NCBI RefSeq assembly: GCF_988243305.1
Contig: NZ_OZ547136.1
Direction: 5' to 3' (one strand)
DNA length: 64,000 nt
Shown: positions 1 to 9,189 of the stretch, piece by piece
Layout: each line of letters begins with the position of its first letter
How positions within the stretch are numbered: position 1 is the stretch's first letter
Program-made: the position numbers and the translations under genes
Notes under the pieces: model-generated
Database searches by the model: none
What the model saw: only the letters and a program-made list of their open reading frames with translations
What the model was told of the DNA's origin: nothing

Positions 1-188
1 ATTACGGTAAGGACCTGTGGAGTACTTATCAGACCATCCAGGAGAATATGCTGAAAGGCGGGATTTCCGGTCGCAGTGCAAAAGGAAAACGTATCCACAC
101 CCGTGCCATTCACAGCATCGACACCGATATTAAGCTCAACCGCGCATTGTGGGTAATGGCAGAAACGCTGCTGGAGAGCCTGCGCTGA
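1..188 (+). CDS. C-terminal fragment of an island protein (possibly DUF932 family); 5' end lies outside the window
   Basis: Open frame from window edge to TGA at 186-188; stop overlaps the ATG of the next ORF; position upstream of antirestriction gene as in CP4-type islands. Family assignment is from memory, not verified. Confidence 0.45.
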   Translation, partial: YGKDLWSTYQTIQENMLKGGISGRSAKGKRIHTRAIHSIDTDIKLNRALWVMAETLLESLR

Positions 189-433
189 TGCAGCATGTCC
201 CTGAAGGCGTGATTCAGGCACCAGAATCACCCGACGCCCCGGAGGCGCTGCCGGGGTGTCGTTCCATTTCTGATGATGACCTGTGCGCCTGGTGTACCCG
301 TCTGCTTTACCGTCCCGGAGAAATCAGTCTGTGCAGACTGAGTACAGGCAATGGCATCTGGCCATCCGTCTGTGACCGGAACGGTTACGCGTACGGCTGT
401 CCGGAATTTCAGCCGAATATCATTCATCCCTGA
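188..433 (+). CDS. Small cysteine-rich hypothetical protein (81 aa), possibly DUF905/YkfF-like
   Basis: ATG at 188 overlaps upstream stop (TGATG), suggesting translational coupling; 7 Cys in 81 aa; sits between DUF932-like and antirestriction genes. Confidence 0.45.
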   Translation: MQHVPEGVIQAPESPDAPEALPGCRSISDDDLCAWCTRLLYRPGEISLCRLSTGNGIWPSVCDRNGYAYGCPEFQPNIIHP

Positions 434-526
434 TATTACCGGGTCTCACGGTCAGTGATGAACGTGATGTTGCCAGCTCCCGACCTTTACTCCCTCTCAT
501 TTATTCACATTACAAGGATTTCATAC

Positions 527-1000
527 ATGAAAACATTGTCTCAGAACACCACCTCTTCGGCCTGTGCACCGGAGACTGGCCTGCAACAACTGGTTGCCAC
601 CATAGTCCCTGATGAACAGCGCATCAGCTTCTGGCCGCAGCATTTTGGCCTCATTCCACAGTGGGTGACCCTGGAGCCCCGTGTCTTCGGCTGGATGGAC
701 CGTCTGTGCGAAAACTACTGCGGTGGTATCTGGAATCTGTACACCCTGAACAACGGCGGGGCATTTATGGCCCCTGAACCGGATGACTATGATGACGAAA
801 CATGGGTACTGTTCAATGCCATGAACGGTAACCGCGCTGAAATGAGCCCGGAAGCCGCCGGCATTGCCGCCTGTCTGATGACGTACAGTCATCACGCCTG
901 CCGTACGGAGTGTTATGCCATGACGGTTCATTATTACCGTCTGCGGGATTACGCCCTGCAGCATCCGGAATGCAGCGCCATTATGCGCATTATTGACTGA
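527..1000 (+). CDS. Antirestriction protein, KlcA/ArdB family (YfjX/YafX-like)
   Basis: Translation MKTLSQNTTSSACAPETGLQQLVATIVPDEQRISFWPQHFG... matches my recollection of the K-12 prophage antirestriction paralogs; AAGGA RBS 9 nt upstream of ATG 527. Confidence 0.85.
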   Translation: MKTLSQNTTSSACAPETGLQQLVATIVPDEQRISFWPQHFGLIPQWVTLEPRVFGWMDRLCENYCGGIWNLYTLNNGGAFMAPEPDDYDDETWVLFNAMNGNRAEMSPEAAGIAACLMTYSHHACRTECYAMTVHYYRLRDYALQHPECSAIMRIID

Positions 1001-1015
1001 AAGGGGGCAGGAACA

Positions 1016-1492
1016 ATGCAACAGCTTTCCTTTCTGCCCGGAGAGATGACGCCCGGCGAGCGCAGTCTCATTCTGCGGGCCCTGAAAACCCTGGACCGCC
1101 ATCTTCATGAACCCGGCGTGGCCTTCACCTCCACCCGTGCGGCACGGGAATGGCTGATTCTGAACATGGCGGGACTGGAGCGTGAAGAGTTCCGGGTGCT
1201 GTATCTGAATAACCAGAATCAGCTGATTGCCGGTGAAACCCTCTTCACCGGCACCATCAACCGCACGGAAGTCCATCCCCGGGAAGTGATTAAACGCGCC
1301 CTGTATCACAATGCCGCAGCCGTGGTGCTGGCACACAATCACCCGTCCGGTGAAGTCACCCCCAGTAAGGCAGACCGCCTTATCACGGAACGTCTGGTAC
1401 AGGCACTGGGCCTGGTGGATATCCGGGTGCCGGACCATCTGATAGTCGGTGGCAGCCAGGTTTTCTCCTTTGCCGAACATGGTCTGCTTTAA
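1016..1492 (+). CDS. RadC-like JAB/MPN domain protein (YeeS/YkfG/YfjY family)
   Basis: 158-aa ORF with intact JAMM-type motif HNHPSGEVTPSKAD; conserved position after antirestriction gene. Confidence 0.9.
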   Translation: MQQLSFLPGEMTPGERSLILRALKTLDRHLHEPGVAFTSTRAAREWLILNMAGLEREEFRVLYLNNQNQLIAGETLFTGTINRTEVHPREVIKRALYHNAAAVVLAHNHPSGEVTPSKADRLITERLVQALGLVDIRVPDHLIVGGSQVFSFAEHGLL

Positions 1493-1554
1493 CCCGCCAC
1501 AACCACATCACACCTGTTTTCACTTTTATCTTCTGTCTTCAGAGGTATCCCATT

Positions 1555-1776
1555 ATGAAAATCATCACCCGTGGTGAAGCCATGCGTATTCACCAACAGC
1601 ATCCTGCATCCCGTCTTTTTCCGTTCTGTACCGGCAAATACCGCTGGCACGGCAGCACTGAAACGTATACCGGTCGTGAAGTGCAGGATATTCCCGGTGT
1701 GCTGGCCGTGTTTGCTGAACGCCGTAAGGACAGTTTTGGCCCGTATGTCCGGCTGATGAGCGTCACTCTGAACTGA
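1555..1776 (+). CDS. DUF987 protein (YeeT/YkfH/YpjJ-like)
   Basis: 73-aa translation MKIITRGEAMRIHQQHP...YVRLMSVTLN is near-identical to K-12 YeeT as I recall it. Confidence 0.85.
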   Translation: MKIITRGEAMRIHQQHPASRLFPFCTGKYRWHGSTETYTGREVQDIPGVLAVFAERRKDSFGPYVRLMSVTLN

Positions 1777-1794
1777 GTCAGTAAGGGCATTCTG

Positions 1795-2439
1795 ATGAGC
1801 AGAATTATCACCACCACCGTGTATACACTGCATGAGCTATCCTCCACCGCACAGGAAAAAGCCCGCGACTGGTACCGTCAGCATCATGCTGACAGCAACT
1901 GGTATGAAAACGTGTATGAGGACTTCAGGGAGGTCTGTGGCATTTTCGGAATTGACCTCCGCCAGCGCGTTTTCCGGCTCAGCAACGGCAGGTTTATGGA
2001 AGAGCCGTGCATCTGGTTCAGCGGATTCTGCAGTCAGGGGGACGGAGCCTGTTTTGAAGGGCGCTGGCACTGGCAGCCAGCGACACCCCGGAAAATCAGG
2101 GAATATGCCCCTCAGGACCGTGAGCTTCATCGTATCGCGGATGCCCTGCAGGCGGTACAGAAGCGTAACTTCTGGCAGTTACAGGCTGAAATCAGTCACC
2201 GGGGACGTTACTGCCATCCGTACAGCATGGATATCACCGTCACCCGGAACAGTCCGACTGGTCAGGCACTGACAGCCGATGCGGAAGCCGCTGTCAGCGA
2301 AGCCCTGCGCGACCTGGCCTTCTGGCTGTACCGCCAGCTGGAAAACGAGTACGACTGGCTGACCTCAGACGCCGCTGTAGATGAGGCCATTCACATCAAT
2401 GCATATACCTTCACCGAAGCCGGTCTCCACGCCGGCTGA
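1795..2439 (+). CDS. Hypothetical protein (214 aa), unknown function, inserted between DUF987 gene and cbeA
   Basis: Uninterrupted 645-nt ORF; ATG preceded by AAGGG; Trp/Cys-rich; no family recognised. The K-12 yeeT-cbeA type modules have no gene here. Confidence 0.55.
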   Translation: MSRIITTTVYTLHELSSTAQEKARDWYRQHHADSNWYENVYEDFREVCGIFGIDLRQRVFRLSNGRFMEEPCIWFSGFCSQGDGACFEGRWHWQPATPRKIREYAPQDRELHRIADALQAVQKRNFWQLQAEISHRGRYCHPYSMDITVTRNSPTGQALTADAEAAVSEALRDLAFWLYRQLENEYDWLTSDAAVDEAIHINAYTFTEAGLHAG

Positions 2440-2488
2440 CCTGTCATCGTTAAACTATCATTCACCAATTTTTTGTGAGGATTTGATC

Positions 2489-2866
2489 GTGTCAGACACA
2501 CTCCCCGGGACAACACTTCCCGACGACAATCACGACCGCCCCTGGTGGGGGCTGCCCTGCACCGTGACGCCCTGTTTCGGGGCACGTCTGGTGCAGGAGG
2601 GTAACCGGTTGCATTACCTTGCAGACCGCACCGGTATCAGAGGCCGGTTCAGCAATGCGGATGCATACCATCTGGACCAGGCTTTTCCACTGCTGATGAA
2701 ACAACTGGAACTCATGCTCACCAGCGGTGAACTGAATCCCCGCCATCAGCATACCGTCACGCTGTATGCGAAAGGGCTGACCTGCGAAGCTGATACCCTT
2801 GGCAGTTGTGGTTACGTTTATCTGGCTGTTTATCCGACACCGGCAGCACCCGCAATCACCGTATAA
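2489..2866 (+). CDS. cbeA: Type IV TA antitoxin CbeA (YeeU) homolog
   Basis: GTG start with GTGAGGA RBS; translation VSDTLPGTTLPDDNHDRPWWGLPCTVTPCFGARLVQEGNRLHYLADR... matches K-12 CbeA. Confidence 0.9.
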   Translation: MSDTLPGTTLPDDNHDRPWWGLPCTVTPCFGARLVQEGNRLHYLADRTGIRGRFSNADAYHLDQAFPLLMKQLELMLTSGELNPRHQHTVTLYAKGLTCEADTLGSCGYVYLAVYPTPAAPAITV

Positions 2867-2912
2867 CCCCGGATATCTCCCCTTTATCACCACCTGTTAC
2901 AGAGAACTTAAG

Positions 2913-3287
2913 ATGAATACATTACCCGACACTCACGTACGGGAGGCATCGGGCTGCCCGTCTCCCGTCACCATCTGGCAGACACTGCTCACCCGACTGC
3001 TGGACCAGCACTACGGCCTCACGCTGAATGACACACCGTTCGCTGATGAACGTGTGATTGAGCAGCATATTGAGGCAGGTATTTCACTGTGTGATGCGGT
3101 GAACTTTCTCGTGGAAAAATACGCGCTGGTGCGTACCGACCAGCCGGGATTCAGCGCCTGTACCCGCTCTCAGTTAATAAACAGCATCGATATCCTCCGG
3201 GCTCGCAGGGCGACCGGCCTGATGACCCGCGACAATTACAGAACGGTAAATAACATAACCCTGGGTAAGCATCCGGAGGCGAAATGA
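2913..3287 (+). CDS. cbtA: Type IV TA toxin CbtA (YeeV) homolog, cytoskeleton-targeting
   Basis: 124-aa translation; C-terminal ~100 aa (LLDQHYGLTLNDTPFADERVIEQHIEAGISLCDAVNFLVEKYALVR...) matches K-12 CbtA; N-terminus divergent. Confidence 0.9.
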   Translation: MNTLPDTHVREASGCPSPVTIWQTLLTRLLDQHYGLTLNDTPFADERVIEQHIEAGISLCDAVNFLVEKYALVRTDQPGFSACTRSQLINSIDILRARRATGLMTRDNYRTVNNITLGKHPEAK

Positions 3288-3775
3288 TGAAACTGGCCCT
3301 GACGCTGGAAGCCGACAGCGTTAACGTACAGGCACTGAACATGGGGCGCATTGTCGTTGACGTCGATGGTATTGAGCTTGCTGAACTGATTAACGTGGTC
3401 TGCGATAACGGTCACTCCCTTCGTGTTGTTGATGAATCTGACCGAGCCTCAACAGACTGCACGCCACCATTTGCTGCCCTGACCGGCATACGCTGCAGTA
3501 CCGCGCATATCACGGCAAAAGACAACGCCTGGCTGTACTCGCTGTCGCATCAGACGAATGACACCGGCGAATCAGAATGGATTCATTTTACAGGCAGCGG
3601 ATATCTGTTACGTACCGATGCGTGGTCATACCCGGTTCTGCGGCTTAAACGCCTGGGCCTGTCAAAAACGTTCCGCCGCCTGGTTGTCACACTCATCCGA
3701 CGTTATGGCGTCAGTCTCATTCATCTGGATGCCAGCGCTGAATGCCTGCCGGGTTTACCCACTTTCGACTGGTAA
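3284..3775 (+). CDS. DUF5983 protein (YeeW-like), overlaps cbtA stop
   Basis: ATG at 3284 overlaps cbtA stop (ATGATGA); 163-aa ORF in the conserved position after cbtA. Confidence 0.75.
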   Translation: MMKLALTLEADSVNVQALNMGRIVVDVDGIELAELINVVCDNGHSLRVVDESDRASTDCTPPFAALTGIRCSTAHITAKDNAWLYSLSHQTNDTGESEWIHFTGSGYLLRTDAWSYPVLRLKRLGLSKTFRRLVVTLIRRYGVSLIHLDASAECLPGLPTFDW

Positions 3776-3777
3776 CC

Positions 3778-3984
3778 ATGAACAACATGAAATCATTAAC
3801 CACGGAAACCGCACTGGATATTCTGATTGCGTGGCTGCAGGACAATATCGACTGCGAATCGGGAATTATCTTTGACAACGATGAGGATAAAACAGATTCG
3901 GCAGCACTGTTGCCCTGTATCGAACAGGCCAGGGAGGGTATCCGTACCCTGTGCCAACTGCAGCTTCTGCACCAGAACCGATGA
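3778..3984 (+). CDS. Small acidic hypothetical protein (68 aa), possibly DUF957-like
   Basis: ATG 2 nt after the previous stop; acidic DNDEDK stretch; family assignment from memory only. Confidence 0.5.
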   Translation: MNNMKSLTTETALDILIAWLQDNIDCESGIIFDNDEDKTDSAALLPCIEQAREGIRTLCQLQLLHQNR

Positions 3985-4073
3985 GTCTTACTCATTCACT
4001 CACCAGACTTCATTCCAATGACGTCAGCCTGAACAGGGCTGGCGTTTTCGTTTATAAACCAAAAGGAAAAACG

Positions 4074-4919
4074 ATGATGTCAGATATCACAATCTCCCGC
4101 CTGGAAGTGGTCAACGGACATACGGACATTATCTGCTCCACCTCAGTCAGCCACATTCTGGCTGTGCGAAAGACTACACTGCTGCAAATCGACACACTTA
4201 TCCGGCAACTGACTGAAATATCAGCAATGACAGAAAGTATTGGCGGTAAAACCGCACTGGACTGGGCCATGAAACAGGATTTTCGCTGCGGCTGCTGGCT
4301 CATGGATAAACCTGATACAGCAATGAAAGCTATCACCCGCAATCTCGATCGCGAAATCTGGCGTGACCTGATGCAATGCTCCGGGATGCTTTCCTTAATG
4401 GATGCACAGGCCCGTGATACATGGTACCGATCACTGGAGTACGATAATTTTCCGGAAATCAGTGAAGAGAATATTCTGAGTACGTTTGAGCAGCTACACC
4501 AGAATAAGGATGAAGTGTTTGAGCGAGGAGTGATCAACCTCTTCAGAGGGTTGAGCTGGAATTACAAAACCAATTGCCCCTGTAAATTTGGCAATAAAAT
4601 TATCGTCAACAATCTGGTGAGGTGGGACCGGTGGGGATTGCATCTTATCACCGGGCAACAGGCAGATAGACTTGCCGACCTGGAAAGAATGCTGCATCTG
4701 TTCAGCGGCAAACCGATCCCCGACAACAGGGAAAACATAACTATTCATCTGGACGAACATATCCGGTCTCTTCAGGGAAAAGAATGCTATGAAGATGAGA
4801 TGTTCATTATTAAATACTTTAAGAAGGGCTCTGCGCACATCACGTTCAGGAAGCCAGAACTGGTTGACAGACTGAATGATATTATCGCAAAACACTATCC
4901 TGATATGCTGGCAGTATAG
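4074..4919 (+). CDS. Hypothetical protein (281 aa), island cargo next to serX; possibly DUF4942-like
   Basis: AAGGAAAA RBS before ATG 4074; long ORF with lower GC than core; no catalytic motif recognised. Confidence 0.6.
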   Translation: MMSDITISRLEVVNGHTDIICSTSVSHILAVRKTTLLQIDTLIRQLTEISAMTESIGGKTALDWAMKQDFRCGCWLMDKPDTAMKAITRNLDREIWRDLMQCSGMLSLMDAQARDTWYRSLEYDNFPEISEENILSTFEQLHQNKDEVFERGVINLFRGLSWNYKTNCPCKFGNKIIVNNLVRWDRWGLHLITGQQADRLADLERMLHLFSGKPIPDNRENITIHLDEHIRSLQGKECYEDEMFIIKYFKKGSAHITFRKPELVDRLNDIIAKHYPDMLAV

Positions 4920-5026
4920 CTTTGCCAGTATGCTCAAAGATCGGAAATTGTCCGATAAGATATGATCGTGGGGCATATAAACCGGTTTCAGATGGCATAC
5001 CCGGTGGCATACTGTCTGGAAGGATA

Positions 5027-5060
5027 AATAAAAAAGCGCATGTTAAACAATAACATGCGC
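5027..5060 (-). terminator. Rho-independent terminator of serX
   Basis: Perfect 10-bp inverted repeat GCGCATGTTA/TAACATGCGC with 5-nt loop, followed on the minus strand by a T-tract, just downstream of the tRNA 3' end. Confidence 0.7.
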
Positions 5061-5068
5061 TTGTAATC

Positions 5069-5156
5069 TGGCGGTGAGGGGGGGATTCGAACCCCCGATA
5101 CGTTGCCGTATACACACTTTCCAGGCGTGCTCCTTCAGCCACTCGGACACCTCACC
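5069..5156 (-). tRNA. serX: tRNA-Ser (GGA), serX
   Basis: Reverse complement reads GGTGAGGTGTCCGAGTGGCTGAAGGAGCACGCCTGGAAAGTGTGTATACGGCAACGTATCGGGGGTTCGAATCCCCCCCTCACCGCCA: 88 nt, long variable arm, CCA end. Confidence 0.95.
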
Positions 5157-5350
5157 AAATTGTTGTTCCTGTCTTGCTGGAACGGGCGCTAATTTAGGGA
5201 AATCATGACCTGAGGTCAACAAACTTTTTTAAAAAATCGCGCGTTTATTCAAACTTCAATCAATATGCAGTTTTAATAAGCGAAATCTGCTTTTTTTGCC
5301 ACCGACCACGGATTTGTTATGCTGGTGGCTTTTGTAGATCATAACGATAA

Positions 5351-6328
<978 letters not shown>

Positions 6329-6382
6329 TAAAGCATCAGGTTTCCTGCTATCCTTGGCGGGAATTGAATACAGGAGAGAGTT

Positions 6383-7120
6383 ATGTATCCCGTCGACCTT
6401 CATATGCATACCGTTGCCAGCACGCATGCATATAGCACATTGAGTGATTACATTGCCCAGGCCAAACAAAAGGGCATTAAACTTTTTGCGATCACCGATC
6501 ATGGCCCGGATATGGAAGATGCGCCGCATCACTGGCACTTCATTAACATGCGTATCTGGCCGCGAGTGGTTGATGGGGTTGGGATCCTGCGCGGCATCGA
6601 AGCTAACATTAAAAATGTTGACGGTGAAATTGACTGCAGTGGCAAAATGTTTGATTCGCTGGATCTGATTATTGCCGGTTTTCATGAGCCGGTGTTTGCG
6701 CCGCATGACAAAGCGACCAATACGCAAGCGATGATCGCCACTATCGCCAGCGGCAATGTGCATATAATAAGCCATCCCGGAAATCCGAAATATGAAATAG
6801 ATGTTAAAGCCGTTGCTGAAGCAGCTGCGAAACATCAGGTGGCGCTGGAAATCAATAATTCCTCATTTTTACACTCACGTAAGGGCAGTGAAGACAATTG
6901 TCGTGCGGTAGCCGCAGCGGTACGTGACGCTGGAGGTTGGGTGGCATTAGGCTCGGATTCTCACACCGCGTTTACCATGGGTGAATTTGAAGAGTGTCTT
7001 AAAATCCTCGACGCGGTAGATTTTCCGCCAGAGCGCATTTTGAATGTTTCTCCGCGCCGCTTACTGAACTTCCTTGAATCTCGCGGTATGGCACCGATTG
7101 CGGAATTTGCAGACCTTTAA
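6383..7120 (+). CDS. ycdX: PHP-domain phosphatase YcdX
   Basis: 245 aa; N-terminal DLHMHT metal-binding motif. Confidence 0.93.
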
Positions 7121-7143
7121 TTACTAGTAATGGAAATATATTA

Positions 7144-7698
7144 ATGAACGAGTTTTCTATCCTCTGTCGTGTGCTGGGTTCGCTCTATTACCGCCAACCA
7201 CAAGATCCTTTACTGGTGCCGCTGTTTACCCTGATTCGTGAGGGGAAACTGGCTGCGAACTGGCCACTGGAGCAGGATGAGTTGCTGACACGTTTGCAGA
7301 AAAGCTGTGATATGACGCAAGTCTCTGCCGATTACAATGCGTTGTTTATCGGCGATGAATGTGCTGTGCCGCCATATCGTAGCGCATGGGTTGAGGGCGC
7401 GACGGAAGCGGAAGTGCGCGCTTTTCTTTCCGAACGGGGGATGCCATTAGCGGATACGCCAGCCGATCACATCGGCACATTGCTGCTCGCGGCTTCCTGG
7501 CTGGAAGATCAGTCAACGGAAGATGAGAGCGAAGCACTGGAAACACTGTTCAGTGAGTATCTGTTACCCTGGTGTGGTGCGTTCCTTGGTAAAGTGGAGG
7601 CCCATGCAACTACGCCTTTCTGGCGCACCATGGCACCGCTAACCCGCGATGCCATTAGTGCAATGTGGGACGAGCTGGAAGAAGATTCTGAAGAGTAA
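7144..7698 (+). CDS. ycdY: Chaperone YcdY (TorD family)
   Basis: 184-aa ORF; K-12 gene order. Confidence 0.9.
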   Translation: MNEFSILCRVLGSLYYRQPQDPLLVPLFTLIREGKLAANWPLEQDELLTRLQKSCDMTQVSADYNALFIGDECAVPPYRSAWVEGATEAEVRAFLSERGMPLADTPADHIGTLLLAASWLEDQSTEDESEALETLFSEYLLPWCGAFLGKVEAHATTPFWRTMAPLTRDAISAMWDELEEDSEE

Positions 7699-7799
7699 AT
7701 GTGATCTACGTCACTCATAACTGCAACAGATAATTTGTTGTTGCATAAAATGTGTGCTCGATCTCATTCATGGCCGCGTTTTCTGCTATCATGCGCGGC

Positions 7800-8291
7800 A
7801 TGAACATACTTCTCTCTATTGCAATCACAACAGGCATTCTCTCCGGTATCTGGGGATGGGTGGCTGTTTCCCTGGGCTTACTAAGCTGGGCGGGCTTCCT
7901 GGGCTGTACGGCCTACTTTGCCTGCCCGCAAGGTGGGCTGAAAGGGCTGGCGATCTCCGCTGCAACCCTGCTTAGTGGCGTGGTGTGGGCGATGGTCATT
8001 ATTTACGGTAGTGCACTGGCACCACATCTGGAAATTCTCGGTTATGTCATAACCGGTATTGTCGCGTTTCTGATGTGTATTCAGGCCAAACAGCTGCTGC
8101 TTTCATTTGTTCCGGGAACGTTTATAGGCGCATGCGCGACGTTTGCCGGGCAGGGTGACTGGAAACTGGTGTTACCTTCGCTGGGGCTCGGGTTGATATT
8201 TGGTTACGCAATGAAAAACAGCGGCCTGTGGCTGGCGGCGCGTAGTACGAAGACCGCTCACCGTGAGCAGCAAATCAAAAATAAAGCGTGA
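7800..8291 (+). CDS. ycdZ: Inner membrane protein YcdZ (DUF1097)
   Basis: Hydrophobic 163-aa protein from MNILLSIAITTG; ORF extends upstream but K-12-length start chosen. Confidence 0.85.
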   Translation: MNILLSIAITTGILSGIWGWVAVSLGLLSWAGFLGCTAYFACPQGGLKGLAISAATLLSGVVWAMVIIYGSALAPHLEILGYVITGIVAFLMCIQAKQLLLSFVPGTFIGACATFAGQGDWKLVLPSLGLGLIFGYAMKNSGLWLAARSTKTAHREQQIKNKA

Positions 8292-8355
8292 GGGGCACTC
8301 ACGCTTTCGCTTAAACAGTAAAATGCCGGATTATTAATTCCGGCATTTTTATCTA

Positions 8356-9189
8356 TCAGGATTCCGGTGGAACCGACATATGGCGGTATTTCACTAGAAT
8401 GTCATTCTGCCGTTCTGCTTTATTTTGCAAATCCCAAAGACCGCGGTCGATACCATCATTAATCAGGAAAATGACGCCTGTTTCGATAGCCGACATTAGG
8501 CACAGCATAACGGGTTCGTTCGAGGTGTAACCTACTTCCCCTTCCAGCAAGCGCTGGTAGTCAATAAAGCGGAAAACCCCGGCCTGAACTTCATAGGAAA
8601 GTATCGTCTTACTAGTGTTCACCGAGGAGAGGATCTCGCCGGTACTCACATTGACGACGCGCAGGTTCACGGCAATCTGATCAAGCTGGTATTGCGTGTC
8701 GGCACCGATCCCAAAATATCTTGCCCCAACCCCGCCCGATTTGACGTTGCTTTCATAACCGATAATTGAACCTTCAACCATGATATTTGCCGCCGTTAAA
8801 GACTGCAGCGGGATTCGGTTATTAATGGCAACCGTACCGTTTTCTTGTGCCGCACGAATAATCTTGCGCTCGTTAAGCAGGTTTTGTAAGCCCTGGCGCT
8901 CCAGCGGTATAAACCAGCGAGAATCTTTCAATGCCGTGACCAGCATTGCCGTGGCGCTTTGCGGAACAGCAGTGGAGAAGTTACTTGCCGGGTAGGGTTT
9001 AAATTGCCCGGTTTCGTCCTGAATGTTGTATACCGAAACAAAGATCTTACCCGTCGGCGCTGGCAGATGGGTCAAATCTTTGTAGCTCTGAGCACGAGGC
9101 ATTAATGTCGGTCTGGCGGCTTCTTTAGGCGGGGCGGTTAAGCATCCGCTCAGTAACATGACGGCAACCAAAAGAAATAAGCGCTGCAT
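8356..9189 (-). CDS. csgG: Curli secretion channel lipoprotein CsgG
   Basis: 277 aa; lipobox LLSGC. Confidence 0.95.
   Translation of the reverse strand: MQRLFLLVAVMLLSGCLTAPPKEAARPTLMPRAQSYKDLTHLPAPTGKIFVSVYNIQDETGQFKPYPASNFSTAVPQSATAMLVTALKDSRWFIPLERQGLQNLLNERKIIRAAQENGTVAINNRIPLQSLTAANIMVEGSIIGYESNVKSGGVGARYFGIGADTQYQLDQIAVNLRVVNVSTGEILSSVNTSKTILSYEVQAGVFRFIDYQRLLEGEVGYTSNEPVMLCLMSAIETGVIFLINDGIDRGLWDLQNKAERQNDILVKYRHMSVPPES

Follow-up and report, generated by a model that had tools for sequence, protein, structure and literature searches.

The question raised by this locus is where a genomic island that abuts a tRNA gene comes to an end, and whether the terminator downstream of the tRNA belongs to the island or to the chromosome. 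The DNA analysed (the window) is a 64,000-nt stretch of contig NZ_OZ547136.1. Its single tRNA is a minus-strand tRNA-Ser(GGA) at 5069-5156 (ARAGORN), which can be identified as serX because ghrA, ycdX, ycdY, ycdZ and the csg genes lie to its right. The final ORF of the island, to its left, is a DUF4942 gene (Pfam PF13708, E=2.8e-70) with its TAG stop codon at 4917-4919; given these two limits, 4920-5068 comprises 149 nt without a credible gene, in keeping with the roughly 150 bp of non-coding DNA reported in a preliminary description. Three small ORFs in the spacer (4922-5053 on the plus strand, 4882-5142 and 5043-5222 on the minus strand) were rejected, since each runs into the tRNA or the terminator and none is annotated in any relative. 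An Rfam search of 4600-5450 at a permissive threshold found only the tRNA credible (53.8 bits), and neither the RtT model nor a tandem 181-bp unit was found in that region. Our preferred explanation, to which we assign a probability of about 0.9, is that 4920-5068 consists entirely of island DNA and represents the integrase-distal arm of the attP site of an island that targets serX and serW. The features on which this reading depends are collected in Table 1.

Table 1. Features of the serX-side junction, in order of position in the window (a dot marks features listed without a strand)
Feature	Position	Strand	Basis or remark
DUF4942 gene, last of the island's conserved distal module	4077..4919	+	Pfam PF13708; annotated DUF4942 in matching genomes
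Probable integrase-distal arm of island attP, specific to serX/serW islands	4901..5068	.	Left limit approximate, 4882-4907
TGGCAGTAT motif, weak candidate site	4909..4917	+	9-mer common to both arms
Inverted copy of box core, GCATACTGG on minus strand	4925..4933	-	9-mer common to arms, inverted; also inverted repeat
TTGTCCGATA, candidate site for accessory protein or Int	4948..4957	+	10-mer common to integrase-proximal arm
Tandem boxes TGGCATAC-N4-TGGCATAC, candidate arm-type integrase sites	4993..5012	+	Conservation; both arms
Putative island-borne intrinsic terminator for serX	5024..5062	-	Hairpin 5034-5062, T-run 5024-5033
Putative 14-nt att core (direct repeat TGGCGGTGAGGGGG), last 14 nt of serX including CCA	5069..5082	.	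Three-way comparison
serX, tRNA-Ser(GGA)	5069..5156	-	ARAGORN; Rfam tRNA 53.8 bits
Sigma-70-like promoter match TTGACC-17-TAAATT, core DNA upstream of serX	5191..5219	-	Consensus scan only

The DNA on the island side, positions 1-4919, is the conserved distal module that many E. coli islands share. It runs from the end of an Ag43-family region through genes for DUF932, an antirestriction protein, RadC/JAB, DUF987, the CbeA/CbtA toxin-antitoxin pair, DUF5983 and DUF957 to DUF4942, all of them on the plus strand and convergent on serX. Relatives are annotated with a DUF4942 start that corresponds to 4077; in the window the reading frame stays open for a further 42 codons above it, to a GTG at 3951.

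When a 701-nt junction query was searched against 5426 complete E. coli genomes, matches were obtained in 5425, with at least 80% of the query covered in only 1173. All of the partial serX-locus matches that were sampled begin at window position 5065 or 5069, and in island-free genomes homology to the window exists only from these positions rightwards; the region of the sigma-70-like match is among the sequences common to island-free genomes. Reference loci for placing the breakpoint were the empty site of strain CE2050, a K-12-type site, the island-bearing strain 190693 and a serW locus with an island. Strain 190693 is the best match to the window (99.5% identical over 25 kb by BLAST), and its island of about 64 kb extends from just after dgcT to serX, with a tyrosine integrase gene at the dgcT end. 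In CE2050, which is of closely related background, the empty site consists of dgcT, 104 nt and serX. A three-way comparison revealed that this empty site does not differ from the integrase-end junction as far as the end of TGGCGGTGAGGGGG, nor from the window from TGGCGGTGAGGGGG onward, the DNA to the left of 5069 being unrelated. The 5′ 74 nt of serX are chromosomal and its last 14 nt are the same in island and chromosome. This alignment with an island-free locus places the crossover inside TGGCGGTGAGGGGG at 5069-5082, i.e. within the last 14 nt of serX, and because it falls there the whole of 4920-5068 is island DNA. The preliminary description had correctly located an island-core junction in this immediate neighbourhood, as island DNA abuts serX at 5068/5069, but it had put the boundary distal to the terminator and outside of the tRNA, where the alignment does not support it. 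Far from being core sequence shared with island-free strains, the interval lies at the opposite extreme and is all island.

The second copy of TGGCGGTGAGGGGG lies outside the window, at the integrase end, where it is seen in the close proxies 190693 and UTI89, the latter having the same integrase-end junction as the former. Because the best match in the collection to the window's genome is 99.5% identical, this end is known from proxies, and the corresponding end in the window's own genome could be degraded. The 14-mer, which forms the last 14 nt of both serX and serW, is the published direct repeat of O-islands 43/48 of O157:H7 and of the Shigella SRL PAI (PMC3064760), and the right end given for PAI-UTI89-serX in a review, 1142536 (PMC7545054), maps to about 5073 of the window. 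At the integrase end, and also in relatives, the inverted repeat GGCGGT/ACCGCC flanks a 7-bp spacer, suggestive of a classical core that in E. coli would read TCTGGCGGT-GAGGGGG-ACCGCCTGA, with a predicted exact 7-bp overlap of GAGGGGG at 5076-5082. A P4-type tyrosine integrase would have recombined attP with the last 14 nt of serX, the predicted attP junction being ...GCGCTTGTAATC-TGGCGGTGAGGGGG-ACCGCCTGAAAT... and the predicted attB ...TCTTTAAATA-TGGCGGTGAGGGGG-GGATTCGAA...; serX would now read from its chromosomal 5′ part through the identical core into island sequence, while the native terminator and a 14-nt ser′X remnant would have been moved about 64 kb, to the integrase end.

The sequence immediately beyond the core contains a perfect 12-bp inverted repeat (arms at 5034-5045 and 5051-5062, 100% complementary, with a 5-nt loop); the perfect 10-bp repeat described earlier, at 5036-5060, corresponds to its inner portion. 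The T-tract that had also been recognised is TTTTATTTAT, located after the hairpin on the tRNA strand. The RNA hairpin folds at -17.5 kcal/mol (z = -6.5), and none of 200 shuffles folds as well. It has the properties of an intrinsic terminator, with a 12-bp stem that includes 5 G-C pairs, the tail UUUUAUUUAU and a location 6 nt after CCA. Only the tRNA strand has a U-run after the stem; since the stem is followed by GTAATCTGG on the plus strand, the hairpin would stop transcription in one direction, that of serX. Another hairpin, GCTCGTAC-TTTC-GTACGAGC followed by T8 on the tRNA strand (-21.3 kcal/mol), is the native serX terminator. In the island-bearing proxies it lies beside dgcT with the 14-nt ser′X remnant, about 64 kb from serX, and the window hairpin is not common to island-free genomes at serX. 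Thus, the "intact serX terminator" of the preliminary description is indeed well formed and is oriented and placed to end serX, but it is not the native one, which resides at the integrase end. By this comparison, the island appears to have brought a Rho-independent terminator of its own, 6 nt past the CCA end (hairpin 5034-5062 with its T-run), which replaces the one that the island displaced. This terminator probably ends serX transcripts and probably shields the convergent toxin-antitoxin/DUF4942 (CbtA-CbeA) operon from antisense read-through.

The distribution of the spacer is that of a mobile element. By itself it is present in 1355 of the 5426 E. coli genomes, at 1462 places, and the full stretch including the DUF4942 end is found in 1321 genomes. 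The DUF4942-spacer-tRNA junction is the same at serW as at serX, and the spacer is absent from empty sites. Homology to the DUF4942 genes of islands at other loci ends at 4882-4907, and because these genes align only that far, the last ~165-185 nt before the tRNA constitute a module specific to the integration system. As the homology stops 12-37 nt before the stop codon, the last DUF4942 codons are located in this att-specific arm; the 3′ end of the gene overlaps the candidate site TGGCAGTAT (4909-4917). As the arm of attP distal to the integrase, 4920-5068 now makes up the junction on the serX side. Within E. coli the spacer has seven variants, with scattered differences that never fall in the boxes or the hairpin, at a divergence too low to mean much; because these elements are invariant within the species, the evidence for selection comes from distant relatives.

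More informative than the hairpin repeat is a sequence that the preliminary description mentioned in passing, a short direct repeat at 4992-5011. The repeat is real and was placed one base off: TGGCATAC occurs at 4993-5000 and again at 5005-5012, leaving 56 nt between the pair and the core (5013-5068). The 8-mer alone is not beyond chance, with 3 copies in the whole window versus 2.2 expected; taken in its context, the repeat exceeds chance by far. The 20-nt arrangement TGGCATAC-N4-TGGCATAC has one further copy in the 114 kb examined, in the same orientation and at the integrase end, between the core and the int start codon (L004 6277-6296; also in UTI89). The two arms have 20 8-mers in common versus 1.9 expected, a level reached by none of 2000 shuffles; besides the boxes, these include TTGTCCGATA (4948), TGGCAGTAT (4909) and, inverted, GCATACTGG (4925). 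At the integrase end TGGCAGTAT overlaps the int start codon, and its conservation there may reflect coding. The proxy integrase possesses the domains Arm-DNA-bind_3 (PF13356, E=1.6e-15, residues 4-92), Phage_int_M and Phage_integrase. From this arrangement the TGGCATAC boxes are probably arm-type integrase sites, most likely bound by the N-terminal arm-binding domain, and because matching boxes are present in the other arm, Int could link arm to core within the recombination complex. A literal search of the literature for the boxes brought up unrelated papers only. The box pair has at least 120 matches in viral contigs, none accompanied by a relative of the integrase even at E=10, and for this reason these matches are considered chance or unrelated occurrences. 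The IHF consensus WATCAANNNNTTR has no match in the interval; the whole window holds 7 exact matches versus 2.45 expected (1 of 100 shuffles reaches 7), none of them near the interval.

Diverged integrases, from a scan limited to one genome per species, allow the integrase-side arm to be followed over a greater distance. Proteins 70-76% identical were found in Edwardsiella hoshinae, Budvicia aquatica (two), Limnobaculum eriocheiris and one MAG. Upstream of int in these relatives, the same elements follow one another in otherwise diverged DNA: a hairpin and A-run, which is the local native terminator, a TGGCGG-type 14-mer, an inverted CCGCC/CTGCC half-site 7 nt beyond it, GTCCRAT, which is kept in relatives from four other genera, and boxes of the pattern ATGGCATAC-N4-TGGCATAC. 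The distance from the boxes down to the int start codon is 20-45 nt in all relatives (L004 6277-6330; L011-L014, L018), and some relatives have a third, degenerate box upstream of int. No tRNA was found within 3 kb of the integrase-side sites of the relatives, which would fit an intact tRNA at the far end. Phage relatives were also considered for an attP comparison and were rejected as too distant, the closest phage integrases being at most 40% identical.

The tRNA-side junction could be followed in metagenomes, using a pattern that consisted of the box pair and then TGGCGGAA (8 nt of the tRNA end) within 38-68 nt, worded so as to leave out the E. coli core. The search yielded 50 matches with 35 distinct spacers, which, because the pattern required both, are selected for the boxes and for TGGCGGAA. 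For 36 of the 50 matches, TGGCGGAA coincides with the 3′ terminus of an intact tRNA on the opposite strand, most of the others being cut by contig ends. The tRNAs are Ser UGA, CGA, GCU and GGA and Asp GUC; TGGCGGAACGGACG corresponds to tRNA-Asp and TGGCGGAAGCGTAG to tRNA-Ser(UGA), and both equal cores that are found beside integrases in genome contigs. Although distances of 38-68 nt were allowed, the box-to-tRNA distance is 54-56 nt in 26 of the 35 spacers (56 nt in 16, 55 in 8 and 54 in 2) and 43 nt in 5 others. A GC hairpin with a U-run on the tRNA strand was detected in 29 of the 35 by an automatic test and in 5 more by eye (34/35), and the junction hairpins comprise 29 different sequences. 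In 15 hairpins, picked after folding showed that they share their register with the window, 98.3% of cells are paired and 9 of the 12 stem pairs are compensatory (0/500 shuffles), no shuffle or slid control coming near the observed pairing. RNAalifold gave no consensus for 20 spacers with mixed hairpin registers. A search of the 50 junction loci for an integrase, which would have identified small elements with both arms, found none.

The loop of the window hairpin is TTGTT (5046-5050) versus ATTGATT-like loops in 15 of the 35 related hairpins (metagenomic loci L213-L259). The element-borne terminators often resemble one another in loop and upper stem; their lower stems covary. The likeness could result from common descent or from a second function of the palindrome.

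Taken with the integrase-side arms, the metagenomic junctions lead us to favour, by a little over even odds, a broader proposal in which the boxes, a ~56-nt spacer carrying a terminator, and a 14-nt tRNA end together form a portable module that a broad clade of P4-type integrases has conserved. At that same level of belief, the clade would use a single arm-recognition code with cores retargeted to at least five tRNA genes (Ser GGA/UGA/CGA/GCU and Asp GUC). No description of such a module or of the box motif was found in the literature searched, which left out the key SRL PAI attP paper.

Other readings of the hairpin have to be weighed against an island-borne terminator in an attP arm. Its position and orientation suit a tRNA terminator, and an A-run and GC at the base of the stem are common to the K-12-type locus in the alignment, so the hairpin might be the native core terminator of serX, with the island boundary between it and the DUF4942 gene. 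An A-run, however, is a feature of any terminator; homology to island-free genomes stops at 5065 or 5069, the native hairpin differs and is found at the integrase end, and the same spacer accompanies serW islands, all of which make this reading very improbable. It is somewhat less improbable, and still quite unlikely, that the hairpin serves chiefly as a palindromic binding site in DNA for a protein, e.g. a bending factor, or else terminates the convergent DUF4942 operon and not serX. In lambda attP, bending sites lie between the arm and core sites, the location that the hairpin occupies here between arm boxes and core, and the ATTGATT-like resemblance of loops noted above in 15/35 would suit a bound palindrome. 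Yet covariation of the stems with retention of pairing is the signature of a structure and not of a sequence-specific site, the interval lacks the IHF consensus, and termination of the DUF4942 operon is disfavoured by the U-run, which follows the stem only on the tRNA strand, the plus strand having GTAATCTGG instead. That the repeats and hairpin are mere chance features of an AT-rich spacer would agree with the 8-mer not being enriched on its own in the window and with the at least 120 viral box-pair matches that lack a related integrase; it is the least probable reading of all, given how the hairpin folds relative to shuffles, the sharing of 8-mers between the arms, the recurrence of the box pair at the integrase end, the boxes kept in relatives and at metagenomic junctions, and the covariation.

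The most serious competitor, which we nevertheless regard as unlikely, concerns the boxes: they may be sites for an AlpA-family directionality factor or a host factor, or serve mainly as an int operator. The island encodes an AlpA-family protein, its gene 4 kb from int, and the boxes upstream of int could be sites for it; those boxes could also, or instead, form the int operator, considering their distance of 20-45 nt from the int start in all relatives. In lambda-type systems, sites for directionality factors are usually confined to one arm. In contrast, the TGGCATAC boxes occupy both arms and keep a constrained distance to the core, in an element whose Int has an arm-binding domain. Furthermore, the window copy lies ~64 kb from int and adjoins a tRNA, with no target for an operator. 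The box arrangement upstream of int resembles that described for IntS of KplE1 (PMC2951348), and Int might use its arm sites to repress its own gene, as reported for IntS. The arm-site role of the boxes and a role as operator or as sites for another protein are not mutually exclusive.

The comparison with known elements identifies the island as the PAI-serX of B2 ExPEC strains such as UTI89, with the same integration module as the SRL PAI and OI-43/48. The window is 99.4% identical over positions 1-9000 to PAI-UTI89-serX and related PAI-serX islands of B2 ExPEC strains (UTI89, RS218, IHE3034, UM146), in which the integrase-end junction is the same as in the proxy and the published end is at the serX 3′ end (PMC7545054); it is identical to no complete genome in the collection, and the interior of the island extends beyond the window. 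SRL PAI of Shigella flexneri and OI-43/48 (SpLE1, the tellurite-resistance island of E. coli O157:H7) are like the window in their serX/serW targets and in TGGCGGTGAGGGGG, and they have a P4-family integrase at the end with the ser′X remnant, as do the window's proxies. The O157 spacer is 96.6% identical to that of the window and the DUF4942-spacer-tRNA junction is the same, whereas the cargo differs, the window belonging to an ExPEC PAI-serX-type island of which Ag43 and the CbtA/CbeA module are visible. Excision of SRL PAI and OI-43/48 by recombination between the direct repeats has been shown experimentally (PMC3064760), and integrase-dependent precise excision and integration have been reported for both (PMC3064760, PMC7545054). 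Hence the island type, its target, the 14-bp repeat, the P4-family integrase and excision are all already published, and what the comparative view of the arm module adds to a known island-tRNA junction is modest.

The junction also resembles a lambda-type attP, in that inverted putative core half-sites GGCGGT/ACCGCC surround a 7-bp spacer, repeated candidate boxes are present in both arms and the integrase has a separate N-terminal arm-binding domain; it differs by the absence of the IHF consensus from the window arm. The region downstream of serX in K-12-type strains likewise has a hairpin and T-run shortly after CCA, of a sequence unrelated to that in the window. It differs further in its tandem RtT-like 181-bp repeats, each with a 19-nt copy of the tRNA 3′ end, of which the window has none. 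In the K-12-type strain CM5 (L001 3200-4010), four tandem 181-bp units lie downstream of serX, three of them annotated as RtT sRNA, and each unit contains, within its 19-nt serX 3′-end copy, the 14-nt att core, along with a copy of the native terminator. Because every unit holds a copy of the core, there are five potential attB cores in a row at the K-12-type serX. B2 strains have a single, partial 181-bp unit and are without ycdU.

The junction described here is real, ordinary and already described, and it will not surprise a specialist. For annotation, the consequences are that the island boundary at serX belongs inside the last 14 nt of the tRNA and not at the terminator, and that the terminator now serving serX is to be credited to the island. 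The TGGCATAC boxes keep a fixed distance to the tRNA in elements whose targets are several tRNA-Ser genes and tRNA-Asp, and may be useful for locating the far ends of such islands and for predicting their attP sites. Elements that enter the 3′ ends of tRNA genes must replace what they displace, and at this locus that includes the terminator.
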